Below are positions 22,826 through 49,175 of a stretch of 64,000 nucleotides of DNA, one piece after another. Each line of letters opens with the position of its first letter. Position 1 is the stretch's first letter. A program made the position numbers and the translations under genes. The stretch covers positions 32,001 to 96,000 of IMG/VR virus record IMGVR_UViG_2862281513_000001. One strand, given 5' to 3'. The notes below the pieces were generated by a model. That model saw only the letters and a list, made by a program, of their open reading frames with translations, was not told the DNA's origin and made no database searches. This stretch comes from a virus. Taxonomy: Duplodnaviria; Caudoviricetes.

Positions 22826-22866
22826 CGGTCTGCGCCTTTCTGTGGTGGTGTGTCCTGCTCTCATCA

Positions 22867-22915
22867 TTGACCAATTCGCCGGGTTTACCCTCATAATCCC
22901 GTTGAATTTGGCCCA
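22867..22915 (-). repeat. Array repeat copy 1 (49-bp core, diverged)
   Basis: TCATCA-TTGACC...TTTGGCCCA. Confidence 0.8.
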
Positions 22916-22942
22916 GGGGCCCCGCCGTGTGCGGGGCCCCTG
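22914..22942. terminator. Hairpin downstream of parB
   Basis: CAGGGGCCCCGC/GCGGGGCCCCTG. Confidence 0.6.
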
Positions 22943-22953
22943 CGCCTCCTGGG

Positions 22954-24129
22954 CTAGGAGGCGCTGGTCTCGGTGGTGTTGGTGGCCTCGGCGTCCGGGG
23001 CGACCCGGAGGGCACCCGCGCGGACCGTGGCCGCGGTCGCCGCCTTGGCCAGGTTCTGGGACGCCTTCGTGGCCACCTGGCGCAGGTGGTCGATGCGCAT
23101 CCGGTTGCCGGGGATCCCGCCGTGCGCACCCGCGAGGAGGAGCGCCAGCTCGTCGGGGTCCATGCTGGCGATCTCCTGGAGGATCTCGCCGGCCGCGCCC
23201 AGCTTGCCGATCTTGCCAACCAGCTTGTTGCGGTCGCTCATGATCCGCTCACGCCGGTCGACGTCGGCCTCGGCCAGCTCCGGGAACATCGTGTCGTCGA
23301 CCTTGCTCGGGTCGGCGTCCTCGGCCAGGACGAACATGACGCTCTGGCTGGCCGCGTCCTGCTCCTCGGCCCGGACCCGCTGGCAGAAGCCCTCAGCATC
23401 CCTGATCGTCGCGAACTGGCCCCGGCTCCAGCGGGCGAGGAACGCGTTCTGGTTGGCCGGGCTGATCTGCGCCGCGTACCAGGCCAGGCCGACCGGGACG
23501 TGGCCCTTGAGGAGCGCCTCCTGCACGGCGGGCACGAGCTTGAGGAGCTGGAGCCGGTTGTCGACGTGGTTCCAGCTCTTGCCGATCCGCTTTGCCACCT
23601 CTTCGGGGGTGAGGCCGAAGTCCACCAGCTTCTGGAACGCGTTGGCCTCCTCCAGCGGGGTCATGTCGGCCCGGCCGAGGTTCTCGGCGACCGACCGGGT
23701 GAAGCCCTCCAGCGTCTCCGAGCCGCCTTCCAGGCCGTGCATCACCATCGCCGGGATCGTGGCCACGCCCGCCATCTGGGAGGCCCTCCAGCGGCGCTCA
23801 CCGGAGATGAGCCGGTACTTGCCGCGGCTGATGTAGCGGACGGTGATGGCCTGCTGGACGCCGATTTCCTTGATGCTGTCGGCCAGCTCCTGGAGCTTCT
23901 CCTCGTCGAAGACCTCGCGGGGCTGGTTCTCGTCCCGCTCGATGTTCTCGATTGGGAGGACCTTCAGCGTAGTCTTCAGCTCGGCCGGTGCCGCCGGGGC
24001 GGGGGCCGCGGCCTTCTTGGCCGGGGCCTTGCGGGCGGTGGGCGCCTTCTTGGCCGCGTCCTTCTTGGCGGGGGCCTTGCCGGTGGCCTTCTTGGCGGCC
24101 TTGGGGGTGGCGGTGGTGGTGGCGGTCAT
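22954..24129 (-). CDS. parB: ParB/RepB/Spo0J family protein with histone-like (AKK) N-terminal tail
   Basis: NQPR..FD...L.ELA.SI...G, LISGERRWRA, ENL.R.DMTPLEEA, HTH. Confidence 0.92.
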   Translation of the reverse strand: MTATTTATPKAAKKATGKAPAKKDAAKKAPTARKAPAKKAAAPAPAAPAELKTTLKVLPIENIERDENQPREVFDEEKLQELADSIKEIGVQQAITVRYISRGKYRLISGERRWRASQMAGVATIPAMVMHGLEGGSETLEGFTRSVAENLGRADMTPLEEANAFQKLVDFGLTPEEVAKRIGKSWNHVDNRLQLLKLVPAVQEALLKGHVPVGLAWYAAQISPANQNAFLARWSRGQFATIRDAEGFCQRVRAEEQDAASQSVMFVLAEDADPSKVDDTMFPELAEADVDRRERIMSDRNKLVGKIGKLGAAGEILQEIASMDPDELALLLAGAHGGIPGNRMRIDHLRQVATKASQNLAKAATAATVRAGALRVAPDAEATNTTETSAS

Positions 24130-24176
24130 GGTGCCCTCCGTGGTGAGTGGGTGGGTGGTGTGTCGTGCATTCATCA

Positions 24177-24251
24177 TTGACCAAGAGCTTCGGGATAACC
24201 TCGGTTTACCGATTGATTTGGTCAAGGGATCGGCAAGTATGCCCAGGTCAG
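24177..24251 (-). repeat. Array repeat copy 2
   Basis: Core 24177-24225 plus distal CAGGTCAG. Confidence 0.9.
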
Positions 24252-24298
24252 GGCCTTGCCGGGGGCCGCCCGCCCGAGGGCAGGCGGCCCGCCGTCCG

Positions 24299-24613
24299 CT
24301 AGATGAAGCGGGCCAGCTCGCGGGCCCCGCGGGTGATGATGTTGTCCTCGCCGCCCCGGAGCAGGGCGCGGGTGGCGGCCATCAGGTCGCGGCGGGCCTG
24401 CTCGCGGTGCGCGATGGCCTCCCGACGGATCTTCTCGCCGGCCGCGATCAGCCGCTCGGCGTCCAGCTGGCCCTTGGTGACGCTGCGGCGGATCTCGCAC
24501 GCCCAGGCGACCTGCTCGCTGCGGATCAGGCGCTTGACGAGGTCGAGCGCATCGTCCGCGTCGCCCGCGCCCGCGATCAGCTCGGTCTCTTCGAGGAGGG
24601 TAGCGAGGTCCAT
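24299..24613 (-). CDS. Hypothetical protein
   Basis: GGGAG RBS, directly after a repeat. Confidence 0.75.
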   Translation of the reverse strand: MDLATLLEETELIAGAGDADDALDLVKRLIRSEQVAWACEIRRSVTKGQLDAERLIAAGEKIRREAIAHREQARRDLMAATRALLRGGEDNIITRGARELARFI

Positions 24614-24655
24614 CGTGCACTCCCTGGTGGGTGGTGGTGTGTCCTGCATTCATCC

Positions 24656-24730
24656 TTCCGCCAACCCTCCGGGCCAACCTCGTTATCCCGGGAAGTTTGG
24701 TCAAGGAATCGTCAGGAAACCGCAGGTCAG
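24656..24730 (-). repeat. Array repeat copy 3 (contains upstream stop at 24727)
   Basis: Core 24656-24704 plus CGCAGGTCAG. Confidence 0.9.
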
Positions 24731-25389
24731 AGGCCGAACAACCCGTCCTGTACCGGCTCGGCGACCGGCGCCGTGGCGGGCTTGCCGTGGACCAGGTGCT
24801 CGGCGACCGTCCATCCGGTCCACGCGGGCGGCGTCTCGCCTCGCCGGCTGCTGTTGCCGGTGAGGACGAGCAGGTCGGCGCGGGCGAGGTGGACCGTGCC
24901 GTCGAGGATCAGCCACACCTCGCAGCGGGGCAGGCCGAGCGCGGTGATCATGGCCAGGTGGTGGATGTCGCCCCATCCGGCGTGCAGTGCACCAGGAGCG
25001 ACCCAGACCCACGTGCCGAGGTTCACGTCGCCCGGTCCGGCCGGGGTGTGCCGGTAGGGCGGGCGCTGCCGTACAGGCCGCGGTGGCTTCGGCGGGTAGA
25101 AGTGGCTCGGCGGGTAGTGCGGCTGGCGGGCCTCTTTGAGTTCGGCGGCCTGCCACCGGGTGACGTCGGCCGGGGTGTAGCAGAGGGGGCCGACGTGCCA
25201 CTTGCGGGGCGTCGTCTTGTCCCGCCAGACGGCCGCGCCGCAGGTGCAGCGGCTTTCCGACAGGTGCTCTCGTGCGGGTCCGCAGGGCCAGGCGGTGTTG
25301 CACGGGCGGCAGGCCGGCTGGCCGCTGTCCAGGCCGTGCGGGAGGTGGTGGTCGGGCAGGCGGATCGGCCGGATCGTCCAGGGCCTCAC
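24727..25389 (-). CDS. Hypothetical Cys/His-rich protein
   Basis: GTG start after AAGGA; CRPC..WPC, CTCG; ends QDGLFGL. Confidence 0.65.
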   Translation of the reverse strand: MRPWTIRPIRLPDHHLPHGLDSGQPACRPCNTAWPCGPAREHLSESRCTCGAAVWRDKTTPRKWHVGPLCYTPADVTRWQAAELKEARQPHYPPSHFYPPKPPRPVRQRPPYRHTPAGPGDVNLGTWVWVAPGALHAGWGDIHHLAMITALGLPRCEVWLILDGTVHLARADLLVLTGNSSRRGETPPAWTGWTVAEHLVHGKPATAPVAEPVQDGLFGL

Positions 25390-25469
25390 TGGGGCGTCCT
25401 TTCCGGGTGCGGTGGGTGGAGGATGGGCGCGGGCCGGGGAGCGCTCCCTGCTCCCCGGCCCGCCGGCTG

Positions 25470-26168
25470 CTACTGGCTCAGGACGTGGACGGCCTTGCCC
25501 GGACGGCGGGGCGAGTAGCACAGGTACTCGCCCCATTCGTCGTTCACGCCCTTGCCGGTGCGGTCCCAGACGAGCGTCCGGTCGCACTGGGCGCACGTTC
25601 CGGCGTCCTCCCCCGGCCTGCCCTGCTGCGGGAGGGTGTTGAGGAGGCGGACGGCTTCGGGCAGGCAGGTCGCGGTGTGGACGGTGGCGGTGGGGTCGAC
25701 GGGCGCCTGGTGCAGCTGCTCGGACGCGGTCGTGGCATCCGGGACGATCACGGTGGTGAGGCCGTCGGCGGCGGCGGCGTTGACGCTGGCGAGGATGCCC
25801 TCGGGGGCGCGCAGCCAGCCGGCCAGGTCGAGTTCGCCGGTTACCGCGATGCGGTCGAGGGCCCCCTCGTGGATGTGGCCGGCCGCGGCGAGGATGGCGC
25901 AGGCGATGGCGAGGTCGGACAGGGTGCCGTACGGGCGGTGGTCGTCCCGGGTGACCTGCACGTTGACGGTGCCGTCGGGCCACTCGTAGCCGCTGTTGAT
26001 GAGGGCCGCGCGGATGCGGTCGCGGGTCTCGCGCTCGTGGTCGACGCCGAGGATGACGCTGGCGTCGGGGGCGTCGGGCCAGATCCGGGCGAGGACCGTT
26101 GCGATGCCGTCGGCGGTGCCGACCCGGGCGGTCGCGCGGCGTTCGGTGGGGGTGCGGCTGTCGTTCAT
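25470..26168 (-). CDS. ComM/YifB (Mg-chelatase-like) N-terminal domain only, plus small Cys domain
   Basis: ETRDRIRAALINSGYEWP, DLAIACAILAA.G, GELDL.G; no Walker motifs. Confidence 0.8.
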   Translation of the reverse strand: MNDSRTPTERRATARVGTADGIATVLARIWPDAPDASVILGVDHERETRDRIRAALINSGYEWPDGTVNVQVTRDDHRPYGTLSDLAIACAILAAAGHIHEGALDRIAVTGELDLAGWLRAPEGILASVNAAAADGLTTVIVPDATTASEQLHQAPVDPTATVHTATCLPEAVRLLNTLPQQGRPGEDAGTCAQCDRTLVWDRTGKGVNDEWGEYLCYSPRRPGKAVHVLSQ

Positions 26169-26292
26169 GGCGGTGGCCTTTCTGGTGAGCGGAGGCGCCG
26201 GGGTGGCGGTTCCGGGGCGGGCGGCGCGCACCAGGCCCGTGGGCCTGTCGCGCCGCCCGCCCCGGGGGCGGCCGGCCGGCCGCCCGGCCGGG

Positions 26293-26508
26293 TCAGAAGC
26301 CGAACTCGCAGTACTCGCAGAACGTCGTCCGCACCTCCCCCTTGTTGTTGGTGAGCGGGACCAGGTCCTCGCCGCAGTCGCCGCAGACGCCGAAGTCGGT
26401 GACCGGCAGGGGGGTGCTGACGGGCGCCGCCGGGAGGACGGGCGCGGGGCTGACGTTGACCGTCGCGGTGACCGTGCCGGTGCTGTTGCTGATGAGGAGG
26501 ATCGCCAT
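26293..26508 (-). CDS. Small zinc-ribbon protein
   Basis: CGDCG...FCEYC; paralog of 48868-49068. Confidence 0.7.
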   Translation of the reverse strand: MAILLISNSTGTVTATVNVSPAPVLPAAPVSTPLPVTDFGVCGDCGEDLVPLTNNKGEVRTTFCEYCEFGF

Positions 26509-26553
26509 CGGGTGCTCCCTGGTGGTTGGTGGTGTGTTGTCCTGCATTCATCC

Positions 26554-26629
26554 TTCCACCACCCTCCCGGGATAACCTCGTTATCCCGGGAAGTTTGGTC
26601 AAGGAATCGTCAGTGAAACCGCAGGTCAG
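26554..26629 (-). repeat. Array repeat copy 4 (contains upstream stop at 26626)
   Basis: TCCCGGGATAAC-CTC-GTTATCCCGGGA perfect inner palindrome. Confidence 0.92.
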
Positions 26630-27417
26630 CCCTCCTCGGCGAGCAGCTGGAGGGCGGTGACCGCGGCGGTCAGTCGGCGGGCGCCGATGACGTCGAGCTT
26701 GAGCCCCAGGGCGAGGACGTCGCGGACCTGGTCGGTGGGGACGATGACGGTGCGGTAGCCGTTGGCGTGGGCGGTTCGGGCCGCGTCGTCGATTCCGGGC
26801 AGTGCCTCGACCGCGCCGCTGTGGCTGTTCAGCTCGCCGAGGAGCACGGCCTGGTCGAGGGCGCGCGGGTCGAGCTGGCCGCTGGCCGCGAGGAGGGCGC
26901 AGGCGGCCGCGAGGTCGAGGGTGCTGGTGACGTTGCGGTGATGGTCGATGCGGACAGACACCGCACCGCCGGGGAAGGTGAAGCCGCTGCGGGTGATCGC
27001 GTCGCGGATCCGGACGTCTGCCGTGCTGTCGTACTGGTTCCAGCCGGCGATCCGGAAGCTGTCCGCGCCGGGCCAGACCGTGGCCTCGACGAGCACCATG
27101 CCGGCCTTGGCGGCGCCGCTGGCGTGGGCGGCGGTGACGGCGAGGTTGCTGGTGTTGCTGTTCGGGGCGAGCGCGTACTCGGGGTTGCCGGATGCCTGCC
27201 GCAGGCCCTCGAGGAAGCTGTCGAGCGCCTCGGCCGCGGTGGCGCCCTTGATGATGTTGACCTCGCCGAGGGCGTCGGCCGCCTCGACGTCCAGCTCCTC
27301 GACGACGACCTGCCTGCGGGTGAGGTCGACGGGGGCGGGCGCGATGTCCCACAGGGTGTAGCTGGCTGCGTCGACGCGGCCGACGATGATGAACTCGGGG
27401 GTCCGGGTGGCGGTCAT
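26626..27417 (-). CDS. Second ComM/YifB N-terminal-domain protein with N-terminal extension
   Basis: RIRDAITRSGFTFP, LDLAAACALLAASGQ, LGEL; no AAA+ domain. Confidence 0.8.
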   Translation of the reverse strand: MTATRTPEFIIVGRVDAASYTLWDIAPAPVDLTRRQVVVEELDVEAADALGEVNIIKGATAAEALDSFLEGLRQASGNPEYALAPNSNTSNLAVTAAHASGAAKAGMVLVEATVWPGADSFRIAGWNQYDSTADVRIRDAITRSGFTFPGGAVSVRIDHHRNVTSTLDLAAACALLAASGQLDPRALDQAVLLGELNSHSGAVEALPGIDDAARTAHANGYRTVIVPTDQVRDVLALGLKLDVIGARRLTAAVTALQLLAEEG

Positions 27418-27480
27418 GGCTGTCTCCTTGGTGGTGAGGTGGGGGCGGGCTGGGGGCGGCCGGCCGGCCGCCCCGGCGGT

Positions 27481-27753
27481 TCAGGACTTGCGGCGGTTGA
27501 TCTGGTGGAGGGTGACGCCCTCGGCGGCCAGGGCCCGGCAGATGTTGCCGCGCACCCACCCGCCCCAGCCGTCCGACTCGTACTCGGCGAGGAACTGTCG
27601 CCGCTTGGGGTTGGCCGTGTTCGGGCTGAACGTGGCCGCCAGCTCGTAGGCCAGGACTCGGGTGCTCCACGGGCCTTCGAACAGCTCGTCGGAGATCGCG
27701 TTGTCCTCCAGGTCCCAGTACCGGTGGAGGAGGGGGGTCTGGGTCTGGTCCAT
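27481..27753 (-). CDS. Hypothetical protein
   Basis: GGAG RBS, directly after a repeat. Confidence 0.7.
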   Translation of the reverse strand: MDQTQTPLLHRYWDLEDNAISDELFEGPWSTRVLAYELAATFSPNTANPKRRQFLAEYESDGWGGWVRGNICRALAAEGVTLHQINRRKS

Positions 27754-27801
27754 GGCTGGCGCTCCGTCCCTGGTGGGTGGTGGTGTGTCGTGCATTCATC
27801 A

Positions 27802-27877
27802 TTGGCCAAACCCACCCGGTTAACCTCCCTAGCCGGGCGGATTTGGTCAAGAGATCGACAAGAAAACCGCTGGTCAG
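27802..27877 (-). repeat. Array repeat copy 5 (contains upstream stop at 27874)
   Basis: Core 27802-27850. Confidence 0.9.
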
Positions 27878-29673: not shown

Positions 29674-29717
29674 GCGGTCCGTCCCTTCGGGTGGGGTGGT
29701 GTGTCGTGCATTCATCA

Positions 29718-29793
29718 TTGACCCCACCCCCCGGGATAATCGCGTTATCCCGGGGAGTTTGGTCAAAGAATCGTCAGGAAAGCCGCAGGTCAG
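29718..29793 (-). repeat. Array repeat copy 6 (contains upstream stop at 29790)
   Basis: Core 29718-29766. Confidence 0.92.
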
Positions 29794-30677: not shown

Positions 30678-30718
30678 GCCGTGTCCGTTCTGTGTGGTGG
30701 GTGCTACGTCCTCGATCC

Positions 30719-30793
30719 TTGACCCCACCGGCCGGGTTAACCTCGTTATCCCGGCCGAGTTGGTCAAGGATTCGTCAGTGAGCTGCTGGTCAG
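30719..30793 (-). repeat. Array repeat copy 7 (contains upstream stop at 30790)
   Basis: Core 30719-30767. Confidence 0.9.
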
Positions 30794-31677
30794 CAGGTGA
30801 TGCCGTCGGCCAGGTACGAGCCGTCTTCGGCGACGCTCAGGGCGAACACCTCGGTCGCGGGGCCGCGCTCGACGCGGGTGGCGGGCAGCCACCGGTAGCC
30901 GTCGAAGTCGGGGCGCCGGCCGCCTTCGCTCCTCCAGCAGAGCTGCCATCCGATCTTGCCGGGCTTGCTGCTGTTGCTCAGTCCGCCGGGGAACCCGAGC
31001 GAGCAGACGAGGAGCCGCAGGCCGACCATGAACGCCTTGGAGTGCATGCGCACCTGGTTCTGCTGGCGGCGGGGGGCGTCGTTGACCAGGCCGACGAGGA
31101 ATGCGATCCGCAGCGTCTCGGGCATCGTCAGCACCCAGGCCGGGAAGCGGCGACCGGCCCCGTACTGGCCGAAGTGCTCGGCGAGCCAGTCGACCAGCTC
31201 GGGCCGGACGGCGGCCGCGGCCGCGCCCTTGAGGCGGATCATCGCCCCGGCGGCGTGGAGGACGTCCACCAGGTCCGCGTCGGCGAGCGGGGCGGGCAGG
31301 TCGGGGATGGGCAGCGGCTCCCCGAAGTGGAGTGGCGTGGCCAGCCGGTGGCGGTCGGTCAGGTCGCGGGCCCTGGTCCAGCCAGCTGCCGACAGGTCCC
31401 CGGCCGGGCCGCCGTCCAGCAGGACGGGCGCGGTCCGCGTGTGGAAGGGATGGTCGGCGGTCGTGGCGAAGCCGCTGATGTACGAGGCGCAGTGGACGCG
31501 GACGGTCTCGGTGGTCGCGGTCATCGTCTCGGTGACCGGGCGCCACCGGCGCTCGTGGGTGAACACCTCGTCCCCGGGGGTGACGGTCTCGATGGGGACG
31601 ATGCCGCGCAGGGTCAGGATCATGGTCCCGGCCGGGAAGCCTTCGGGGGCGGGTGCCGGGGGGCTCTGGTTGTCCAT
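30790..31677 (-). CDS. Free-standing Hint/intein-like protein with LAGLIDADG-like remnant, catalytic termini absent
   Basis: GFPAGTMILT..G..PIE....GDEV.TH, TTADHPF, VFALSVAED.SY.ADGI; no Cys1, no terminal HN. Confidence 0.8.
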   Translation of the reverse strand: MDNQSPPAPAPEGFPAGTMILTLRGIVPIETVTPGDEVFTHERRWRPVTETMTATTETVRVHCASYISGFATTADHPFHTRTAPVLLDGGPAGDLSAAGWTRARDLTDRHRLATPLHFGEPLPIPDLPAPLADADLVDVLHAAGAMIRLKGAAAAAVRPELVDWLAEHFGQYGAGRRFPAWVLTMPETLRIAFLVGLVNDAPRRQQNQVRMHSKAFMVGLRLLVCSLGFPGGLSNSSKPGKIGWQLCWRSEGGRRPDFDGYRWLPATRVERGPATEVFALSVAEDGSYLADGITC

Positions 31678-31706
31678 GTGAGGTCCCTTCTCGTGGGGCG
31701 GTGGGG

Positions 31707-32765
31707 TCAGTGGGCGTCGTGGCCGGTGAACCGGAGCCAGTGGGGGCCGCTGTCGGTCAGGCTGTCGCCGAGGATGGCGCGCAGGGCGGCGTCGGCCTCG
31801 CCGAGCGTCTCGGTGTCGAACGGGCCGCCGTCGCCGAGGTTCAGCTCGGTCTCGCCGGCCACCGCGCCGACGATGCGGGGAGCGCCGTCGGCCTCGAAGA
31901 GGACCGCGGTCGCCTCGGGGGCGAGGCGGTGCAGGATCTCGCCGACGCGGGGCGCGGCCTCCTTGAGCGCGGCGGCCTGCTCGCGGGTCATACCGCAGCC
32001 CTCGCACTGGGGGACGTGCCAGTCGTGGCCCTCGCTGCACAGGCACCACCAGCTGGCGTAGCTCCAGCACCATTCCCAGCCGCCGATGCTGTACCGGCCG
32101 TCGTCGTCGGGCTCGATGATGTGGGTGACCTGCCGTGCGCCCTCGTCTTCCAGGTACATCCACGAGATCTTGAGGACGACGGCCAGCGGCTTGTCGCCGC
32201 GGCCCTTGGCGCCGATGTCGATGACGTGCACGGTGTCCATGCCGTCGGCGCCGTACTCTTCGGCGCACCGCTGGGTCTGGTCGGCCAGCTCGCGGGCGGC
32301 GTCCAGGGTGAAGCGGGGCGAGACGAAGCCGTTCCACAGGTTGTGCGGGTCGACCTTGGCGTCCAGCGGGCCGAGCATGTCGTCGATGCAGACCTTCGTG
32401 TCCACGGTGCGGAGGTCGGAGGCGACCCGGTAGAACTCGGCCTGGCTGTGCTCGCCCTCCCAGCTGTCGCCGTCGAAGTCGAGTTCGTCGGCCAGCGTCT
32501 GGCAGAGCCGCCGGTACAGCGCCTTGCGGTACGGGAGGCTGCCGTCCTCGCGGGCGTCCTGCCATGCCTTCACCCAGGCTTGCCGGTCGAAGCGGGCGTT
32601 GGGCTGCATGCCCGCGGCCGCCTGGAGGCAGACCCTGCGGTCGACGTGGACGGTGCCGTTGACGTCGCCGGTGTCGCGCCTGGCGCGGGCCTGGACGATC
32701 TGCTGGATGAGGGCGAGGGCGCCGGCGAGTTCGAGCTGGCCGACTTCCGGGGTCGTGCTGGTCAT
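31707..32765 (-). CDS. Hypothetical multidomain protein
   Basis: GAGG RBS; central domain shared with 29790-30677. Confidence 0.8.
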   Translation of the reverse strand: MTSTTPEVGQLELAGALALIQQIVQARARRDTGDVNGTVHVDRRVCLQAAAGMQPNARFDRQAWVKAWQDAREDGSLPYRKALYRRLCQTLADELDFDGDSWEGEHSQAEFYRVASDLRTVDTKVCIDDMLGPLDAKVDPHNLWNGFVSPRFTLDAARELADQTQRCAEEYGADGMDTVHVIDIGAKGRGDKPLAVVLKISWMYLEDEGARQVTHIIEPDDDGRYSIGGWEWCWSYASWWCLCSEGHDWHVPQCEGCGMTREQAAALKEAAPRVGEILHRLAPEATAVLFEADGAPRIVGAVAGETELNLGDGGPFDTETLGEADAALRAILGDSLTDSGPHWLRFTGHDAH

Positions 32766-33142: not shown

Positions 33143-33184
33143 GTCGGGCTCCCTGGGTGGTGGTGGGTGGTGACACCTTCTTCA

Positions 33185-33260
33185 TTGACCCCACCGCCCG
33201 GGATAACCTCCGTATCCCGGTAGATTTGGCCAAGGAATCGGCAAGGAAACGGCTGGTCAG
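33185..33260 (-). repeat. Array repeat copy 8 (contains upstream stop at 33257)
   Basis: Core 33185-33233. Confidence 0.9.
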
Positions 33261-34084: not shown

Positions 34085-34198
34085 GGGGTGCTCCTTCGTG
34101 CGTGCGGGCAGAACTGGGGGCGCCCCGCCACTGAGGGCGGGGCGCTGCGGTCGGGTGGCCGGGTGGAGGTGGGGGCGCGGGGCGCCCCCACCGGGTGA

Positions 34199-34435
34199 TC
34201 ACCCGTGGCAGATGCACGTGGCCCGAGAGGGGGCCGGGGTGCCGTAGGTGTCGGCGGACACCCGCAGGATCGAGGTGAGGAGTTGGCACAGGTCCGAGTT
34301 CTCGTCGGCCCGGTCCTGGGCGGTGAGGGTGTCGCGGAGCCAGGGGGTGAGGAGGTCCAGCGCTCCGGCGGTGAGGACGATGCCGGTTCCCTCGTCGGCG
34401 GTCGCGCCGGTGTCGGTGATGATGATGTTGTCCAT
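34199..34435 (-). CDS. Hypothetical protein
   Basis: GGAGG RBS after a repeat. Confidence 0.65.
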   Translation of the reverse strand: MDNIIITDTGATADEGTGIVLTAGALDLLTPWLRDTLTAQDRADENSDLCQLLTSILRVSADTYGTPAPSRATCICHG

Positions 34436-34478
34436 GACCCCTCCTGGAGGGTGGTGGTGGGTGGTGACACCTTCTTCA

Positions 34479-34554
34479 TTGACCCCACCCACCCGGATAA
34501 CCTCGTTGCACCGGCTGATTTGGTCAAGGGATCGGCAAGGAAACCGCAGCTCAG
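34479..34554 (-). repeat. Array repeat copy 9
   Basis: Core 34479-34527. Confidence 0.9.
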
Positions 34555-35142: not shown

Positions 35143-35187
35143 TGCGTGCCTTTCGGGGTGGGTGGTGAGGTGGTGACACCTTCATCA

Positions 35188-35263
35188 TTGACCCCACCCA
35201 CCGGGATAACCTCCGTATCCCGGTGAGTTTGGTCAAGGGTTCGTCAGTGAAGCCGCAGGTCAG
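35188..35263 (-). repeat. Array repeat copy 10 (contains upstream stop at 35260)
   Basis: Core 35188-35236. Confidence 0.92.
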
Positions 35264-35775: not shown

Positions 35776-35818
35776 TGCCGTCCCTTTCGGTGGGGTGTGG
35801 TGTGTTACATCCTCTTCA

Positions 35819-35880
35819 TTGAGCCAAAGCCCCTGGGGTAATCACCGGAGCCCGAGAAGTTTGGTCGAGAAATCGTCAGG
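35819..35880 (-). repeat. Array repeat copy 11 (diverged)
   Basis: TTCATTGAGC...TTTGGTCGA, 50-bp core. Confidence 0.8.
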
Positions 35881-35907
35881 GGGCCGCGTGCGGGCCCCCG
35901 GGACCCG

Positions 35908-37422: not shown

Positions 37423-37439
37423 GCTGTTCCTTCCGGGGG

Positions 37440-38081: not shown

Positions 38082-38125
38082 GTCGGGCTCCCTGGGGTTT
38101 GTAGTGGTTGGTGACACCTTCATCA

Positions 38126-38202
38126 TTGACCAAATACCTCGGGGGTACCCTCCCTAGCCTGATTAATTTGGTCAAGAAGTAGTCAGGGAAGCCGCTGGTC
38201 AG
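38126..38202 (-). repeat. Array repeat copy 12
   Basis: Core 38126-38175. Confidence 0.88.
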
Positions 38203-38245: not shown

Positions 38246-38938
38246 TCAGGCGGGCAGGTGCGCCCGGCCGGCCTCGGTCAGCTCGATCGGCTGGCCCTGG
38301 AACAGGGACTTCGAGCTGTCCAGCGTGACCCAGCGCTCCCGGAGCAGCACCTCGAAGGTGTCGGCATAGATGGTGCCGTTTTCACTGCCGATGCGCTCCC
38401 GGTTGCGCAGGCCGAACTGCGTGCGCTTCACGCCACCCTGGGCGATCAGCTCCAGGCCCTTGCGCTGGGCCGGGGTGGGGCGGCGGGCCGGAACCGGCTT
38501 GGCGGGCTCGGACTTGGACTCGGGCTCGGGCGTCGGCTCGGGCGCCGGCTCGTTGGCGGCCCGCTCGGCGGCCTCCAGGGCGCTGACGATGCAGTCGGTG
38601 TCCTGGAGGAACCGGCGGATACCGTCCCACTTGAGCCGGTCCTGCTCGTTGGAGATCGTGCAGCTGGAGCTGCTGGAGGTGGTGCCGACGAGCTGCTTCG
38701 TCAGCCTCTTGCGGAGCTTGAGGAACACCTCGATCGGGTCGTCGTCGCCCTGCTCTTCCAGCAGGAGCCGCCAGGGCATGGCGTCCGCCGTCTTCTCCAT
38801 CGCCTTGCGCATGCTGTAGGGGGTGAGGCTCCGGGTCATGTCGCGCGACTCGGTGGCCAGCGCCTCGCGGGCCTTGCCCTCGTCCTCGATCCGGGTGCCG
38901 CCGAGGTTGGTGAGGATTTCGATGATCCGGTCCTTCAT
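38246..38938 (-). CDS. Hypothetical protein with C-terminal wHTH-like domain
   Basis: GGAGG RBS; domain paralogous to 36952-37422. Confidence 0.75.
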   Translation of the reverse strand: MKDRIIEILTNLGGTRIEDEGKAREALATESRDMTRSLTPYSMRKAMEKTADAMPWRLLLEEQGDDDPIEVFLKLRKRLTKQLVGTTSSSSSCTISNEQDRLKWDGIRRFLQDTDCIVSALEAAERAANEPAPEPTPEPESKSEPAKPVPARRPTPAQRKGLELIAQGGVKRTQFGLRNRERIGSENGTIYADTFEVLLRERWVTLDSSKSLFQGQPIELTEAGRAHLPA

Positions 38939-38983
38939 GGTGCCCTCCGTGGTGGTTGGTGGTGATTGGTGACACCTTCATCA

Positions 38984-39060
38984 TTGACCAAGGGCTTCGG
39001 GAGTACCCTCTCTAGACCGATTAATTTGGTCAAGGAATCGTCAGGGAAACCGCAGGTCAG
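38984..39060 (-). repeat. Array repeat copy 13 (contains upstream stop at 39057)
   Basis: Core 38984-39033. Confidence 0.9.
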
Positions 39061-41822: not shown

Positions 41823-41878
41823 GCTTCCTCCTGGGGAGATGCGGGCGGCCCGGCCCCCGAGGGGGCCGGGCCGGGTGG

Positions 41879-42145: not shown

Positions 42146-42186
42146 GTCGGGCTCCCTGGGGTTGGTGGTTGGTGACACCTTCATCA

Positions 42187-42261
42187 TTGCTCCCACCCTC
42201 CGGGATAACCTCGTTATCCCGGATTGTTTGGTCAAGAGATCGGCAAGTATGCCCAGGTCAG
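42187..42261 (-). repeat. Array repeat copy 14 (contains upstream stop at 42258)
   Basis: TCCGGGATAAC-CTC-GTTATCCCGGA. Confidence 0.92.
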
Positions 42262-42701: not shown

Positions 42702-42717
42702 GCCGGGGTCGTTCCTT

Positions 42718-43245: not shown

Positions 43246-43278
43246 GCTGTGCCTTCCGTCGTGGGGTGGAGGAGGGGT

Positions 43279-43410
43279 GTCCGGACGGCGTCCGGATGCC
43301 GTCCGGATGCCGCGTCCGGACGGTGTCCGGACGCGGTGGGTGCTACCAGACGAGGACCGCCCCACCTGCGCGGACGACGTCCGGACGCTCGATCGGGACG
43401 TCGTCCGGAT
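43279..43410. repeat. GTCCGGA repeat cluster, ~11-bp period
   Basis: Copies at 43279, 43290, 43301, 43314, 43325 (intergenic), 43379, 43403. Confidence 0.8.
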
Positions 43411-43873: not shown

Positions 43874-43958
43874 GGCTGCCTTTCTGGATGAGGTGGGGCG
43901 TCCGGACGGTGGCCGCTGAGCTGGGCGGATACCGTCCGGACGCCGTCCGGACGGTGGG

Positions 43959-44594
43959 TCAGGAGAAGTTGGTCTGGTCGGCGTGCTCGCCGCCGCGCTT
44001 CCAGATGAGGGCGCGGACGTGGTTCGCGGGGACCTCGTAGAAGAGGCGGCCGGTGAGCGGGTCGCCGTTGAGGCGGGTCAGCTGGAGGCTCGTCTCCTCC
44101 AGCTCCCAGGCGTCGCTCGCGGGCGGCTCGATGCCCTCGGGCAGGTAGACGTCCACCTCGCCGTCGCCGGCTTCGGCCTTGATGGCGATGACCTCGCCGT
44201 CGGCCAGGCGGATGCGGAGCATCGGGCGGGGGCCGGTGCCGGTGCCTTCGAGTACGGCCTGGTCGAAGCGGTCGGTGGTGGGGTCGCTCTGGTCGGCGTG
44301 CTCGCCGCCGTGCTCCTCGATGAGCTTGCGGACGTCGGCCACCTGGACCTCGTAGAAGTAGCGGCCGTTGACCGGGTCGTCACCGGCGGTCAGCCATGCC
44401 TCCCACGCGTCTTCCAGCTCCCAGCTGTCGCCGTCGGGGGTCTGGATCTCGTCGGGCAGGTAGACGTCCACGGTGGCCGCGCAGGAGGCCGCCTTGATGC
44501 TGATGAGCTGGCCGTCGGCCAGGCGCAGGTTGTAGTGGACGCCGCCGGTGCCGTCGGCGAGGAACTGCTCGAAGTGGGAGGTGGTGGTGGCCAT
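43959..44594 (-). CDS. Acidic protein made of two tandem ~100-aa domains
   Basis: RLADG..I.IKA......VDVYLP...WELE...GR.FYEV...GGEHADQ occurs twice. Confidence 0.8.
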   Translation of the reverse strand: MATTTSHFEQFLADGTGGVHYNLRLADGQLISIKAASCAATVDVYLPDEIQTPDGDSWELEDAWEAWLTAGDDPVNGRYFYEVQVADVRKLIEEHGGEHADQSDPTTDRFDQAVLEGTGTGPRPMLRIRLADGEVIAIKAEAGDGEVDVYLPEGIEPPASDAWELEETSLQLTRLNGDPLTGRLFYEVPANHVRALIWKRGGEHADQTNFS

Positions 44595-44638
44595 GGCTGG
44601 CTCCGTTCGGTGAGTGGTGGGTGGTGACACCTTCATCA

Positions 44639-44714
44639 TTGACCCCACCACCCGGGATAACCGCGTTATCCCGGGAAGTTTGGTCAAGGATTCGGCAAGG
44701 AAACCGCTGGTCAG
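44639..44714 (-). repeat. Array repeat copy 15, best consensus (contains upstream stop at 44711)
   Basis: TTGACC-CCACCA-CCCGGGATAAC-CGC-GTTATCCCGGG-AAGTTT-GGTCAA. Confidence 0.95.
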
Positions 44715-45325
44715 ACGGTGGCGACCGCGGCGGTGAAAGCGGCGTCGAGGGACTGGACGAAGTCGGCGCCGACGGCCGCGAGGTGGGCGGCCTGGCGGGC
44801 TTCGGCCGCCTCGGCGTCCCTGGCGTGGACGGCCAGCCCGCACGAGCACCAGGTGGTGGTGCGGTCGCTGGAGTCCATCCGCTCGTGGGCGGCGGCCACC
44901 AGACTGAGGCGGGCGGCCAGGGTGAGGCGCAGGTGCTCGTTGTCGGTGTTGAGGAGGAACCCCTGGGCGAGGAGCCGCTCCGCCCGGCTCGGCGGGATCT
45001 GGCAGACGCCGGCCTCGATGACGGGCAGGGTGTACCGCTCGGAGTCGACGAGGCGGACGACGGGGACGGAGGCGATGACCCGCAGGTCGGACAGCTCGTA
45101 GTCGGTGGGGTCGGCGGGGACTTGCGGGGTGAGGGTGATGGAGCGCAGGGCCGGGGTCAGCGTGCCGGGGTCGATCCGGCGCCAGCGGATGATGGCGCCG
45201 CCGGTGCGCTGGGGCTCGATGGCGTAGCCGCGGTTGCAGGCCCGGCGCAGGAGGACCAGGGCGTGGGGCTCGCTGGCGGTGCCGGTGGTGGTGCTGCTGC
45301 CACTGTCGACGGTCTCGGTGAACAC
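44711..45325 (-). CDS. Hypothetical protein with C-terminal CSCG..H motif
   Basis: GGAGG RBS with GTG. Confidence 0.7.
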   Translation of the reverse strand: MFTETVDSGSSTTTGTASEPHALVLLRRACNRGYAIEPQRTGGAIIRWRRIDPGTLTPALRSITLTPQVPADPTDYELSDLRVIASVPVVRLVDSERYTLPVIEAGVCQIPPSRAERLLAQGFLLNTDNEHLRLTLAARLSLVAAAHERMDSSDRTTTWCSCGLAVHARDAEAAEARQAAHLAAVGADFVQSLDAAFTAAVATV

Positions 45326-45404
45326 GATGGCCTCCTGGGTGGGGGGTGGGGCCCGGCCGGGGCTGTGGCCGGGCCCTGGGTGGTGGTGTGTCGTGCATTC
45401 ATCC

Positions 45405-45480
45405 TTGACCAAGCCTGGCCGGTTAACCTCGATGTACCGGCCGGTTTGGTCAAGGGATCGACAAGGAAACCGCTGGTCAG
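45405..45480 (-). repeat. Array repeat copy 16 (contains upstream stop at 45477)
   Basis: Core 45405-45453 with GGCCGGT/ACCGGCC arms. Confidence 0.9.
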
Positions 45481-46406
45481 GCGCGGGGGTGGCGGTGGGC
45501 GTTGGCGTCCAGCCAGACCGTCAGCCGCAGTGCGGCCTCGGCGCACTCGCCGGCCAGGTCCAGCCCTGACGGGGCCTCGAACAGGACGTCCACGTGCTCG
45601 CCGTTGGCGCTGTACAGGGCGGCCACCCATGGCTCCTCGTGGTCGGCCGGGTCGAGGTAGGCGCTCTCGCCGGAGTACAGGTAGACCTTCGAGCCGGTGT
45701 GGGCCTCGTCCTCGTCGGCGCTGCGGTCGACCGCGACCAGGACGTAGCTGATTCCGCCGTCGTCGAGGTAGAGGAAGGCCGGGACGCCGAACTCCGCCAG
45801 CGCTGCGACCAGCTTGTCCCCGTCGTGCGGCCCTGCGGCGGCCGCGGCCTTCTTGGCGTAGCCGCGCTGGGCGGCCAGGTGGAACGGCGGCTTGCCCTGG
45901 TTGTACGGGCGGGCGTTGTCGTCGGCCACGACCTTGGCGAGCTGGTCGCGCTTGTAGTGGATCGCCGCCAGGGAGCGCAGTGCCCAGGCCACGGTCTCGT
46001 CGTCGTCGGATTCGAGCTGGCGGCCGTGGAGGACGGTGTTGCGGCGCTTCTGGAGCTCGAAGTCGTCGCGGGCGAGCTTCTCGCTCACCGCGCCGAGGGC
46101 CCTCATCGGGCCGACCTCGCCGAGGGCGGGGGCGACCGCGTAGTCCAGGACGGCCGGGGAGAGGTGGAAGTCGTGCGCCGTCATCAGGTCGCGGGCTTCC
46201 TGCAGACTGTCGAGCGTCTCGGCGGGCAGCCGGCGGCCGTCCTCGATCGGGTAGGCCGGGGCGGTCAGGGCCGCGAAGCGGATGCTGGCGGCCAGGCGGC
46301 CGATGTACCAGCGGTCGGAGTGGTGGGCGCGGTCCTCGACGATCCCGGCGAGGATGCGCAGCCTGCGGGCGACGGCCTCGGTGGCGGTGGTGGCGATGGT
46401 ACTCAT
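45477..46406 (-). CDS. Hypothetical protein
   Basis: 309 aa, GAAGGG RBS. Confidence 0.8.
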   Translation of the reverse strand: MSTIATTATEAVARRLRILAGIVEDRAHHSDRWYIGRLAASIRFAALTAPAYPIEDGRRLPAETLDSLQEARDLMTAHDFHLSPAVLDYAVAPALGEVGPMRALGAVSEKLARDDFELQKRRNTVLHGRQLESDDDETVAWALRSLAAIHYKRDQLAKVVADDNARPYNQGKPPFHLAAQRGYAKKAAAAAGPHDGDKLVAALAEFGVPAFLYLDDGGISYVLVAVDRSADEDEAHTGSKVYLYSGESAYLDPADHEEPWVAALYSANGEHVDVLFEAPSGLDLAGECAEAALRLTVWLDANAHRHPRA

Positions 46407-46427
46407 GGCGTTCCCTTCGGAGTGTGG

Positions 46428-46898
46428 TCAGGCCCAGCGGCGCAGGGCGTGCTGGCGGCGGCCGAGGTAGGGCACCGCGGCGTCGGGGTGCTGGCTGGCG
46501 ATGTGGGCGGCGGCCGACTCGCGGGCGCCGTCGCGGGTGGTGCCGGTGCGGCCGATGGTCGGGCAGTCGAAGTTGAAGCCGTCGGCGGCGACGGTCTCGC
46601 CGGTGATGACGTGGACCTCGCAGCGCCAGACCCACCGCCCGCGCCGGGCGCCGGGCTCCTGCCGGTAGGAGACGAGCGCGACGGGGGCGGGGGCGCCCAC
46701 GGCCTCCAGCAGGCAGCCGGTGACGGCGCCGTTGGGCTCGTCGAAGGGGAGGACGACGGGGCGGGTCTCCCACCAGCGCAGGTTCAGGGTCGGCCACTGG
46801 TCGGCGGGTACGGGCTGGTCGTCGGGCAGGAACTCGCCGGGTGCGGCCAGGAGGGGCCAGTCGGGGCGGACGTGGTGGAGGTGGGGCAGGCGTTCCAT
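46428..46898 (-). CDS. Hypothetical protein
   Basis: AAAGGA RBS, MERLPHL start. Confidence 0.65.
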   Translation of the reverse strand: MERLPHLHHVRPDWPLLAAPGEFLPDDQPVPADQWPTLNLRWWETRPVVLPFDEPNGAVTGCLLEAVGAPAPVALVSYRQEPGARRGRWVWRCEVHVITGETVAADGFNFDCPTIGRTGTTRDGARESAAAHIASQHPDAAVPYLGRRQHALRRWA

Positions 46899-46909
46899 CG
46901 GGGTTCCTT

Positions 46910-47260
46910 TCAGCTGGCGAGCGCGAGGATGTGGACGGCGATTCGGTGGGCGCACATGTGGATGCCGCGCAGTCCGGCCGGGCACGTGCAGGCCGCTCGT
47001 GCCGTCCGGTAGGCCTCCAGGCCGTCGCTGCTGACGGCGAGGTAGACGCGGTTCTTGCGGGTGTCGCGGAGGGGGATGACGCCGCCCTGTTCGAGCAGCT
47101 CCTCGGCCTTGTCGACCAGGTGCGGCTTGTACTGGGTCAGCTCCTCGGACCGGCGCGCCCGCCTCACCTTCCGGCGGCATTTCGGGCCGAGGCCGTCGGG
47201 TGAGGAGTTCCGCAGACGCCGGCCGCACTTGAGGCACTTGGTGACCGGCGTTGCGTCCAT
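46910..47260 (-). CDS. DUF6011-like + SWIM zinc-finger protein
   Basis: CLKCGRRL...GLGPKC and CTCPAG....CAH. Confidence 0.8.
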   Translation of the reverse strand: MDATPVTKCLKCGRRLRNSSPDGLGPKCRRKVRRARRSEELTQYKPHLVDKAEELLEQGGVIPLRDTRKNRVYLAVSSDGLEAYRTARAACTCPAGLRGIHMCAHRIAVHILALAS

Positions 47261-47302
47261 CGCTGCTCCCTCGGTGGTGGGTGGTGTGTCGTGCATTCAT
47301 CA

Positions 47303-47388
47303 TTGACCGAATGGCTCGGGATTATCCGCGTTATCCCGGATGATTTGGTCAGGGATTGGTCAAGAGAGGGCGCTCCGCTGCTGGTCAG
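47303..47388 (-). repeat. Array repeat copy 17 (duplicated TTGGTCA)
   Basis: Core 47303-47352, second TTGGTCAA at 47356. Confidence 0.88.
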
Positions 47389-47404
47389 CGGCGGGGCGCC
47401 CCGT

Positions 47405-48169
47405 TCAGGCGGTGAGCTCGGCGAGGAGGACGGTGGCGTTGTCCACGAACCGCTGCTCGTCCTCGGTCCGGCTCTTGCGGGAGGTCTCCACGGCCAGGTC
47501 GACGAAGCGGCGGGCGATGGCGGGCAGCTGCTCGTCGTCCAGCTCCACGAACAGGTCGTGCCGGGCCTCCTCGTGCGGCTCGTACGCGCCGTCGGTGGCC
47601 AGGACGAGGCGGTCGCCGTCGGCGATGTCGTGGGTCGCCGTCTCGATCGCCGGGTGACCGTAGCCGGCCTGGGCGTCCTCGTCGGTGAGGACGGCGCCGA
47701 GGTAGGAGGTGATCATGTTGCGGTTGCCGCCCTCGGGGTGGGTGGCGGTCGGCGGGTAGACCCGGCGAAGGTTGTGGTCGTCGGTCAGCCGGTGGGCGAT
47801 GCCGTGGTGCAGGAGGTAGGCGCGGGAGTCTCCGGCCCAGGCGACGACGAGGGGCTTGCCGGGAGCGGTGACGGCGACGACGGCGGCTGCGCTGGGGAGG
47901 TAGCGGCGCTCGTAGGGGTCCTGGCGGTCGGGGTCGGCCGCGATCTCCTCGTACAGGGAGCGCAGGGCGCTCTCGGCGTCGCCGCGGCGGGCGGCCCGGG
48001 TGGCGAGGCGGGCGGCCATGGTGCGGGTCCAGTCGCGGATCGTCTCGGAGGTGCCGATGCCGTCGAGGACGGCGTACGCGCGGATGCCGTCGGCGCCGGT
48101 GCGGACGGCGGCCGCGTCGCACTGGATGCCCCTGCCGCCGATGTTCTGGGCGGTCGCGTAGCTGCGCAT
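47405..48169 (-). CDS. PP2C/PPM-family protein phosphatase
   Basis: R..QCDA, VLDGIG, WAGDSRAY, LT.DH, LATDG, DNAT. Confidence 0.9.
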   Translation of the reverse strand: MRSYATAQNIGGRGIQCDAAAVRTGADGIRAYAVLDGIGTSETIRDWTRTMAARLATRAARRGDAESALRSLYEEIAADPDRQDPYERRYLPSAAAVVAVTAPGKPLVVAWAGDSRAYLLHHGIAHRLTDDHNLRRVYPPTATHPEGGNRNMITSYLGAVLTDEDAQAGYGHPAIETATHDIADGDRLVLATDGAYEPHEEARHDLFVELDDEQLPAIARRFVDLAVETSRKSRTEDEQRFVDNATVLLAELTA

Positions 48170-48234
48170 GGGTCGTGCTCCGTTCGGTGAGGGGTGGGGC
48201 GCCCCGCGGTCGCGGGGCGCCGTCGTCGGTGGGA

Positions 48235-48723
48235 TCAGCTCTGCTCGCTGGCGGGGCGTACACACGTCTCGTGGGTGTGGCAGTTGCACTTGCCGCAGCC
48301 CGCGCACATCTGGCCGGCCTCCAGCCCGCAGGGTCCGCAGCCGCCGGAGGCGTCCAGCTCGGCATCGTCGATCGCGTTCATCAGCTCGAACGCCTTCTGC
48401 TTGTCGAAGCGGGACCGCGGCCTGCACGAGCCGTCGCAGAACTCGGGGCCGCCGAGGAGGACGCTGTCCTCGCCCTGGTGGCCCTCGCAGCCCTCGGCCT
48501 CCCTGAGCGTGACCGTGATGTCGTGCACCTTGAGCACGCCCTCACCCGTCTTGTCGCAGGCGTGGCGCAGGAGCTCGACGTCCATGTGCAGGGCGAGGCC
48601 CTCGGTGGGCGGCTTGCCCTGCACCAGGGCGAGGCTCCTGATGATGCCTCGCAGCTGGCTGGAGTCGGCGGCGCTGTAGTTGCGGTCCTCGATGGCGGGG
48701 TGCTCGATGACGACGTCGTACAC
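48235..48723 (-). CDS. Cys-rich hypothetical protein
   Basis: GGAAGG RBS with GTG; multiple CxxC. Confidence 0.75.
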   Translation of the reverse strand: MYDVVIEHPAIEDRNYSAADSSQLRGIIRSLALVQGKPPTEGLALHMDVELLRHACDKTGEGVLKVHDITVTLREAEGCEGHQGEDSVLLGGPEFCDGSCRPRSRFDKQKAFELMNAIDDAELDASGGCGPCGLEAGQMCAGCGKCNCHTHETCVRPASEQS

Positions 48724-48764
48724 GGCGTTTCCTTCCTGAGCGGGTGGTGTGTCCTCATTCATCC

Positions 48765-48814
48765 TGGACCATACAGCCCTGGATTACACACCGTATCCCG
48801 ATGGATTTGGTCGA
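48765..48814 (-). repeat. Array repeat copy 18 (diverged)
   Basis: TTCATCC-TGGACC...GTATCCCG...TTTGGTCGA. Confidence 0.8.
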
Positions 48815-48867
48815 ATGCTTGCCAGGGGAAGCCGCCCCGCCCGGCAAGTGGAGGGGCGGCCTGGCGG

Positions 48868-49068
48868 TCAGCGACGGGCGGGCCGCGAACCGGCGAGCGG
48901 GAGCCCCAGGTCGCAGTGCTCGCAGAACACGACGTCACTGTTGTCGGTGAGGCACACCAGCTCCAGCCCACAGTCGCAGGTGCCGAGGTCCGGCAGCTCG
49001 GGCAGCGGCCGGGTGACCCGCACGGCCGGCTCGTTGACGACAGTGGCGGCGATGGTGGATGCGCTCAT
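48868..49068 (-). CDS. Small zinc-ribbon protein, first gene of the array
   Basis: CDCG...FCEHC; paralog of 26293-26508. Confidence 0.7.
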   Translation of the reverse strand: MSASTIAATVVNEPAVRVTRPLPELPDLGTCDCGLELVCLTDNSDVVFCEHCDLGLPLAGSRPARR

Positions 49069-49080
49069 GACTCTCTCCCT

Positions 49081-49175
49081 GGGGTGGTGCGGTGGTTTGT
49101 CGTACTTCATTCCTCCCCTGTCCACCCATGTCCACCCTCGTTTGGTCGAGAAAAGCCCAGTTCACAGCAGGTTTG
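49081..49175 (-). repeat. Degenerate array repeat copy 19
   Basis: GGT-rich leader, TTCAT, TTTGGTCGA and CAGCAGGT retained; inner palindrome lost. Confidence 0.5.

Follow-up and report, generated by a model that had tools for sequence, protein, structure and literature searches.

The early genes of phage T7 are known to be separated by RNase III sites, which act at the RNA level only and carry no promoter boxes. Multi-copy operators are another familiar arrangement, with the conserved inverted repeats (CIR) and c repressor of phiC31 and the stoperators of cluster A mycobacteriophages as parallels, and phiC31 is reported to possess early promoters in addition to the CIR bound by its c repressor. 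Promoter-early stem-loop (PeSL) cassettes have been described in the T4-type phages RB49 and phi1, and promoter, terminator and mini-circle activity was demonstrated for them (Arbiol et al. 2010, PMC2839356); intergenic repeats of the halovirus HF2 are reported to have been tested as promoters by reporter gene (PMC8707807). Here we describe an intergenic module of ~110 bp that occurs 18 times in a 64,000-nucleotide stretch of a Streptomyces prophage (IMG/VR record IMGVR_UViG_2862281513_000001, positions 32,001 to 96,000; hereafter the window), in an array of about 34 minus-strand genes in 19 units (22307-49068). The explanation that we favor, and hold to be reasonably likely from the sequence comparisons below, is a repeated cassette in which a promoter contains a built-in dyad (operator and/or attenuator) and which would also act as a recombination seam. 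Literature searches turned up no earlier account of this motif, nor any of PeSL-like units in actinophages.

The original prediction for this locus, made from the letters of the window, had listed 18 clear copies of a nested palindrome. All 18 sites carry the module motif, and a sequence-only covariance model (R1), built from the 18 copies aligned on the sense (minus) strand, recovered exactly these 18 in the whole 9.6-Mb Streptomyces genome, all on the minus strand between window positions 22836 and 48835 with E values of 1e-15 to 1e-27, and none outside the array. Plus-strand matches of R1 were weak echoes of the palindrome only. A degenerate copy suspected near 49141 was also confirmed, as a diverged head copy at 49084-49172 (minus strand; 16.6 bits, E=3e-4, filters off) located before the first array gene (48868-49068). 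In this copy the inner palindrome is missing, and what remains is TCGACCAAA together with leader and ribosome site. The alignment likewise agreed with the proposed sense-strand layout and with a core, TTGACC to GGTCAA, of constant length (49-50 nt in the window copies). All 18 copies are intergenic and co-oriented with the genes, and they head units of 1-4 genes as had been stated, except that the last copy (22836) heads the packaging/late genes. The nesting of the palindrome holds for most copies and fails for those at 27802, 38126 and 38984, in which the left arm of the inner palindrome has diverged. With at most three mismatches, the inner palindrome occurs seven times, compared with no occurrence in 100 shuffles.

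Numbered from the head of the array, and all on the minus strand, the modules begin with the first full copy at 48736-48835 (module 1), in which a hairpin at 48818-48848 replaces the CTGACC box described below. Modules 2 (47270-47387) and 3 (45374-45480) are followed by module 4 (44607-44714), which has the top score of 97 bits and a perfect inner palindrome, and by module 5 (42155-42261). Modules 6 (38952-39060) and 7 (38094-38202) are the upstream and downstream flanks of a one-gene cassette, F33 (38246-38938). Module 8 (35787-35889) has a GC-rich hairpin (35879-35899) in place of the CTGACC box, and module 10 (34448-34554), which comes after module 9 (35156-35263), forms a unit with the open reading frame F30 at 34199-34435 and a hairpin at 34171-34189, a unit that related phages carry elsewhere in their arrays. 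Modules 11 (33153-33260) and 12 (30688-30793) precede module 13 (29686-29793), which heads a C5 DNA methyltransferase gene. The left arm of the inner palindrome is diverged in module 14 (27769-27877) and the palindrome is perfect in module 15 (26522-26629). Module 16 (24623-24730) is followed by module 17 (24147-24251), heading a full-length ParB gene (22954-24129). Module 18 (22836-22923), the last copy, lies directly after a terminator-like hairpin (22916-22940) and heads Dam-like, ParB and terminase genes; its -35 position reads TGGGCC.

An IUPAC pattern of the module, scanned over IMG/VR and one genome per prokaryote species, gave multi-copy matches in Streptomyces only. The carriers are provirus 2772190672_000001, Streptomyces sp. 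NPDC019990, HPF1205 and NPDC018693, and S. althioticus JCM 4344, each with 8-18 co-oriented R1 copies within 20-25 kb. Further R1 copies were found in a prophage of Actinacidiphila reveromycinica, reached via a homologue of F19, the gene that diverges from the array head. The window array and the co-oriented arrays at matching positions in these six related Streptomycetaceae prophages together hold 87 copies, and R1 had no match in 150 other genomes of the genus. These elements represent a rare, uncultured prophage family of ~110 kb without a close isolated phage, for which the motif is a sensitive marker, and the module is a real, strongly selected regulatory cassette specific to this family. 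Six modules of S. althioticus JCM 4344 (L107/L108) form a sub-family with arms CGGTAAAAC and GTTACCTTAG and the same leader. In the same prophage a 90-aa gene, F32, is present twice, each time flanked by modules, which suggests a recent duplication of module-plus-gene units.

Module anatomy was derived from 84-87 copies in the seven prophages. On the sense strand the boxes follow in the order CTGACC-W-GCGG, TG-N-CGA, TTGACCAAA, CGG, G-A-G-G-T-T-A, C..G, GGTCAATGA-GA, AC and CCACC, followed by a CA-rich stretch and then by ATG behind a GGAG-type ribosome site. Within each module, TTGACCAAA is followed after 17 nt by GAGGTTA and then by GGTCAATGATGAA. Across 84 copies TTGACCAAA is conserved at 88-100% per position, and in the -10-like box G53 reaches 99%, T56 98% and A57 93%, compared with only 75% for A52; ~35 nt located 5' of the stem are conserved as well. 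The module also fixes where genes end and begin. The TGA of its CTGACC box is the stop codon of the upstream gene in 36 of the 84 copies (at -25/-26), nine further upstream genes stop at a later TGA within the module, and in 62 of 84 copies a GGAG-type ribosome site precedes a start codon located 88-95 nt past GACCAAA. A role as supplier of stops in all three frames was ruled out, as only two frames are covered. About 20 copies have no CTGACC box and are situated directly after a GC-rich hairpin (in the window modules 1, 8 and 18, the last of which heads packaging genes); the 60 nt upstream of hairpin-preceded copies fold at -25.7 vs -16.6 kcal/mol. TGAC recurs in the upstream boxes with an 11-nt spacing that leads onto the -35 (TGACG-N6-TGACC), which recalls activator sites such as those of lambda CII, although this is only a thought.

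Each module is probably a promoter. TTGACC would be its -35 element, placed at a fixed 17-nt gap from the conserved GAGGTT box, and the -35 consensus of Streptomyces, also in later maps of transcription start sites, is said to be TTGACN. Further support comes from the sense orientation of 87/87 copies, from the fixed distance to the ribosome site and from relocated cassettes, in which the module moves together with its gene. A restart signal makes sense directly after a hairpin, including before the packaging genes, where a mere processing site would not. We propose that transcription would start near a conserved G located ~6 nt beyond the weak -10-like GAGGTTA, 17 bp from the TTGACC -35, and that the module would thereby restart transcription of the next 1-4 genes via its conserved ~55-nt CA-rich leader and ribosome site. 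No sigma-70 domain was found in the complete provirus, nor was there a match there to a single-subunit (T7-type) RNA polymerase, in a search whose control gave no match either, so the host polymerase is taken as the default. Several other promoter assignments were considered by eye on the alignment and rejected for misfits of spacing or conserved positions: SigB/SigF-type GGGTA, WhiG-type GCCGATAA, a second promoter over TGATGAA, and the upstream boxes as -35.

The 49-bp dyad spans the promoter-like boxes, and its pairing is under selection. The mean folding energy of the core is -18.7 kcal/mol compared with -9.7 in shuffles, and sense and antisense energies do not differ (p=0.09). When the register was held fixed, the variable positions 4-9 in the outer arms paired in 168 of 324 cells, as against 135.7±6.5 when right arms were dealt to other copies. 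In the 87-copy alignment 71.3% of cells are paired, whereas slid controls reach at most 53%. Cells changed on both sides number 110, compared with 65.5±8.5 in shuffles, of which 0/500 reach 110; as the dyad copies are related, such covariation counts exceed the number of independent events. Pair 52/80, for example, reads C-G 30 times and U-A 28 times, and distinct complementary arm variants include ATCCATCGGG/CCCGATGGAT, CCCCCCGG/CCGGGGGG and TTTGGATA/TATCCAAA. Since several different complementary variants exist, we conclude that pairing is kept by compensatory changes. The arms that contain the -35 and -10-like boxes are, however, better conserved than their pairing partners, and three position pairs, C42/G62, G44/C60 and A48/T56, show symmetrical conservation of the kind seen where a dimer binds. 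It follows that the dyad is in part also read as sequence. A search of window positions 22000-50000 against Rfam 15 with E up to 0.1 returned tRNA only and no family for the module. As a separate candidate, a ParB/parS reading of the dyad was dropped, as no likeness to parS half-sites was seen by eye.

One possibility is that the modules act on RNA only. In this case long transcripts would run from a promoter at the array head, and the stem-loop, with TTGACC as the foot of the stem, would be an RNase III-type processing site or a stabilizer of 3' ends. Compensatory pairing would be expected of such a stem, and one orthologous set of copies, those ahead of F17, runs G-C, G-U, A-U. The modules also lie between cistrons in one orientation and at a fixed distance to the next ribosome site, and the different, diverged head copy serves the one or two genes at the start of the array. 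T7 RNase III sites are similar in being co-oriented stem-loops between consecutive early cistrons; in the module, unlike the T7 sites, sequence conservation covers boxes both inside and outside the stem, and a strand-specific G-U signal is absent. We consider the RNA-only explanation distinctly unlikely on several grounds. The sense strand shows no excess of G-U pairs over A-C mismatches, the inner stem is lost in three window copies that nevertheless keep all boxes, and about 20 copies are placed right behind strong GC hairpins, where little read-through is expected. Sequence conservation extends to the loop and one arm (G53 and T56 above), and a cleavage site would not need the ~35 conserved nt upstream of the stem. 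An RNA-stem role in addition to the promoter is a different matter and seems possible, if somewhat doubtful. The dyad would then form a stem-loop in read-through RNA, damping or ending transcripts from the preceding unit, and this would be compatible with an operator role.

An operator role of the dyad, as the target of a phage regulator that would switch all units together, appears quite possible, and the candidate regulator is F19. This gene (49235-49843, plus strand) is the only plus-strand gene near the array and diverges from the array head. It encodes a protein of 202 aa with two internal helical repeats of ~85 aa and basic tails, for which AlphaFold gives a confident model (predicted local distance difference test score, pLDDT, 87). 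PHROGs places it in a family of unknown function only, and its homologues, in about 30 clusters, are all "hypothetical" proteins of Streptomycetaceae. Next to the F19 start is an isolated half-site, CCGGGATAAAC (49201-49211, minus strand), kept in four of five related phages, in which it covers the likely -35 of the predicted, apparently leaderless F19 promoter. The fifth phage, that of S. althioticus, deviates both at this half-site and in its module arms. This pattern is a hint that a phage-specific protein reads the dyad.

The dyad could also be purely the multi-copy operator of one phage repressor, without any structural role, that keeps the array silent in the lysogen. The symmetrically conserved half-sites, the half-site at the F19 promoter with the joint change there and in the modules of one phage, and the 18 co-oriented copies at the heads of transcription units are all consistent with such an operator, and phiC31 follows the same scheme by means of two unrelated motifs. 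Like the present prophage, phiC31 is a temperate Streptomyces phage that has about ten conserved non-canonical promoters and multi-copy intergenic palindromes in one co-oriented block, and both of its repeat families are visible in AJ006589. The promoter and the 17-18-bp palindrome of phiC31 are, however, separate motifs of other sequences, whereas here a single 110-bp unit combines the two and sets the stop and start positions as well. The CIR palindrome and the phiC31 early promoter motif gave only chance-level matches with one mismatch in the 117.5-kb prophage, the phiC31 c repressor had no match below E=7 by tblastn against the prophage region, and the module dyad is absent from phiC31. 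A purely operator function is unlikely in our view, because a protein site does not require the variable positions to covary copy by copy, as they do. Nor does F19 possess a known DNA-binding domain or a fold match.

Comparison of the arrays shows gene exchange at the modules. The arrays are largely syntenic, with modules positionally conserved between the same genes in six phages, and the modules are therefore old residents. The window and the related phage G005 carry module-F33-module where the provirus G001 has a single module. This single module is a chimera, in which the 5' flank and boxes match window module 6 and the middle and leader match module 7. A second event concerns a unit of module, F30 open reading frame and GC hairpin that occupies different array positions in four phages. 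In the window its neighbors are F0 and F13, G002 and G005 carry it ahead of F11, and in G004 it is flanked by other modules. The homology of the F30 unit begins within six bases of the first base of the module. The original prediction had looked to gene gain or loss at the repeats, and the chimeric F33 module and the relocated F30 unit are examples of it. At the F0/F13 junction of G002a (L111, ~9690-9720), TGACC stands four times in tandem, followed by CACCCACC, and this junction looks like a collapsed module with the 5' box joined to the leader.

These exchanges look homologous rather than site-specific. Since ~100 bp of nearly identical sequence occur 18 times in one orientation, the modules would be preferred places for homologous exchange, and from the array comparisons they very probably double as a homologous-recombination seam. 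The RecT and YqaJ-type exonuclease pair of the phage (C1:4282940-4284828, inside the prophage and outside the window) may serve exchange between modules, so that genes equipped with a promoter could be gained, lost and moved among related phages with their expression unbroken. The competing idea of attC-like site-specific recombination sites, or of a miniature transposable element that spread in the phage, is very improbable. The array does resemble a series of gene cassettes, upstream genes often end within the repeat, and cassettes differ among relatives. But positional orthologues kept between the same genes in six phages indicate old residents rather than recent insertions, there are no target duplications and no copies outside the array in 9.6 Mb, and the G001 crossover falls within shared sequence, as in homologous exchange. 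Integron attC arrays have an adjacent integron integrase, promoterless cassettes and sites of variable sequence but conserved structure; here the module sequence is far more conserved than attC sites, promoter-like boxes come with each module, and an integron integrase is lacking. The only recombinases are RecT/YqaJ and the prophage tyrosine integrase (C1:4288333-4290141), the sole tyrosine recombinase of the prophage, which marks its right end ~37 kb from the array head. The original prediction had noted no integrase in the window, which is correct for the window, and this integrase is located 22 kb beyond its right end.

Another explanation would be Frpo-type promoters, hairpins of single-stranded DNA that work when an element is brought into the cell as one strand. 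The palindrome does hold a -35 hexamer, and the orphan methylases, ParB-like and DUF3560 proteins recall plasmid leading regions. Terminase, portal, MuF and lysin genes, however, identify a tailed double-stranded DNA phage, and the prophage has no FtsK/TraB-type gene. Frpo and ssi elements belong to leading regions transferred as single strands and use a long hairpin that rebuilds duplex -35 and -10 elements. The module hairpin has 49 nt and a stem of ~23 bp; with the -10-like box lying at the tip, no duplex -10 would result. We regard this explanation as scarcely credible.

The "expression and/or shuffling platform" of the original prediction was thus the right general idea, and its four mechanistic options fare differently. 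The promoter/operator option fits best, by TTGACC-17-GAGGTT, the fixed start distance, siting after hairpins and the half-site at the divergent gene, and its weak point is the -10. The option of an RNA processing or termination stem finds its pairing in the covariation of the arms and lacks the strand-specific G-U signal, and the Frpo and attC options do not hold.

Several results weigh against the composite of promoter, dyad and seam that we favor. GAGGTT is a poor -10, with A at position 2 in only 75% of copies and C or G otherwise, and a scan for an E. coli-type consensus found no promoter in 18 kb of array. For F19, a fold search against PDB gave nothing below E=0.3, hence no known DNA-binding fold, and Pfam gave a sub-threshold HTH_37 only, hence no DNA-binding family. 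An RNA role is not helped by the flanked G-U mismatches, 28 on the sense and 20 on the antisense strand; with G-U pairs showing no preference for the sense strand, an RNA stem and a DNA-level dyad look alike. Because no U-run follows the dyad, a classical intrinsic terminator is likewise not apparent. The copy-specific compensatory changes are not predicted by a pure protein operator, and the sequence-specific conservation is not predicted by a pure hairpin. Finally, a crude adjacency count gave synteny breaks only a modest enrichment at modules (58% vs 46% of junctions), from comparisons that are non-independent. A bolder version of the composite is rather unlikely as a whole: that the dyad acts as a nucleic-acid structure in addition to being a protein site, with the -35 and -10-like boxes built into a hairpin so that the same 49 bases serve DNA as a promoter and read-through RNA as an insulating terminator or processing stem, and that RecT-driven exchange, possibly through small circles, moves promoter-equipped genes in an integrase-free cassette system of temperate actinophages, all units of which a regulator from a new tandem-repeat family (F19) would switch together.

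The ~34 genes of the array, called on the minus strand between 22.3 and 49.1 kb with a GC3-based method, include by Pfam one full ParB, two ParB-HTH paralogues, two ChlI/ComM-N-like proteins, C5 and N6 DNA methyltransferases, two DUF3560 proteins, a DUF6884 protein, a PP2C phosphatase and a Hint domain. Many array proteins have no Pfam family. The Hint domain is the sole, N-terminal match of a stand-alone 295-aa protein (30790-31677, minus strand) that is found in three of the six related arrays. An early role of the array genes in host takeover or anti-defense is plausible from their content (the two DNA methyltransferases, the ParB paralogues, DUF3560 and PP2C). In megablast searches the array had no match among phage records, and among plasmids its methylase and DUF3560 genes alone were matched.

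The window corresponds to C1:4203224-4267223 in the Streptomyces genome. Prophage limits, set through protein collinearity with a complete 111-kb IMG/VR provirus, extend from ~4,172,700 (lysin) to 4,290,141 (tyrosine integrase), a span of ~117.5 kb. The prophage is temperate, with a siphovirus-like gene set that includes terminase, portal, MuF, lysin, tyrosine integrase and RecT/YqaJ. On the minus strand 3' of the array are genes for a Dam-like/GNAT protein, a ParB-like protein, the large terminase and a MuF-ADP-ribosyltransferase fusion, and the element is therefore a tailed phage rather than a plasmid. The closest terminase matches, at 45% identity, are in Saccharomonospora phage PIS 136 and Gordonia phages.

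Some neighboring genes of the window and its relatives are also worth recording. A tRNA-Arg gene (anticodon TCG; 22094-22170, minus strand) lies in the prophage between the first gene past the last module and the Dam-like gene. The fusion protein of 1389 aa (6160-10329, minus strand) joins a MuF head-protein domain to an ADP-ribosyltransferase domain. T4 Alt modifies RNA polymerase by ADP-ribosylation, and it is speculation that the MuF fusion, if packaged and injected, could similarly modify a host protein at an early stage of infection. The packaging and head genes also surround an ATP-dependent DNA ligase gene on the opposite strand (15530-16489, plus strand). At 54021-54716 a 231-aa NERD protein is encoded, in the same relative place as a NERD nuclease in the Actinacidiphila reveromycinica prophage, where a weak SpdB_N match adjoins the nuclease upstream of F19 (L117, 14446-15513). 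Provirus G001 carries a sugar-modification block of glycosyltransferase, DegT-type aminotransferase, ATP-grasp ligase and NDP-sugar dehydratase (L105, 6329-10923), for which no counterpart was matched in the prophage of the window.

If the modules are promoters with an insulator, they would explain how a 26-kb, fast-changing accessory block is expressed and how its genes can be exchanged without loss of expression. The 87 natural variants are a ready series of expression and insulation parts for Streptomyces. The modules also mark the ~34 mostly unknown array genes as a coherent, probably co-regulated set, in which the orphan C5/N6 methylases, three ParB paralogues, two DUF3560 proteins and the PP2C phosphatase are candidates for counter-defense or host-takeover roles.

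Among the known systems, HF2 resembles the prophage in having classes of repeated intergenic sequence. This archaeal virus differs in its AT-rich archaeal promoter motifs, in repeats of 29 and 58 bp without a dyad, and in sharing no sequence relation with the module. The PeSL cassette is the closest functional counterpart of the module, although not a homologue. Both are intergenic repeats of ~100 bp that lead from the upstream stop through -35 and -10 (in the module -10-like) boxes, with a stem-loop between or over them, to the ribosome site and start codon of the gene that follows. Both cluster among variable genes whose functions are unknown, and in both cases relatives differ by a gene between two cassettes as against one chimeric cassette. 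The two have no sequence relation, and PeSLs are AT-rich and belong to T4-type myoviruses, whereas the module is found in a temperate phage with siphovirus-like genes in a high-GC actinobacterium. PeSL boxes match the sigma-70 consensus, while the -10 of the module is far from it. Stem-loops of PeSLs fall into five placement classes; the module has one fixed 49-bp dyad from the -35 to its complement and adds a conserved upstream box set and a 55-nt leader. PeSL activities have been measured, and those of the module are predicted. If the promoter-and-insulator explanation is true, the PeSL idea would extend from lytic T4-type enterobacterial phages to temperate phages of high-GC Gram-positive bacteria.

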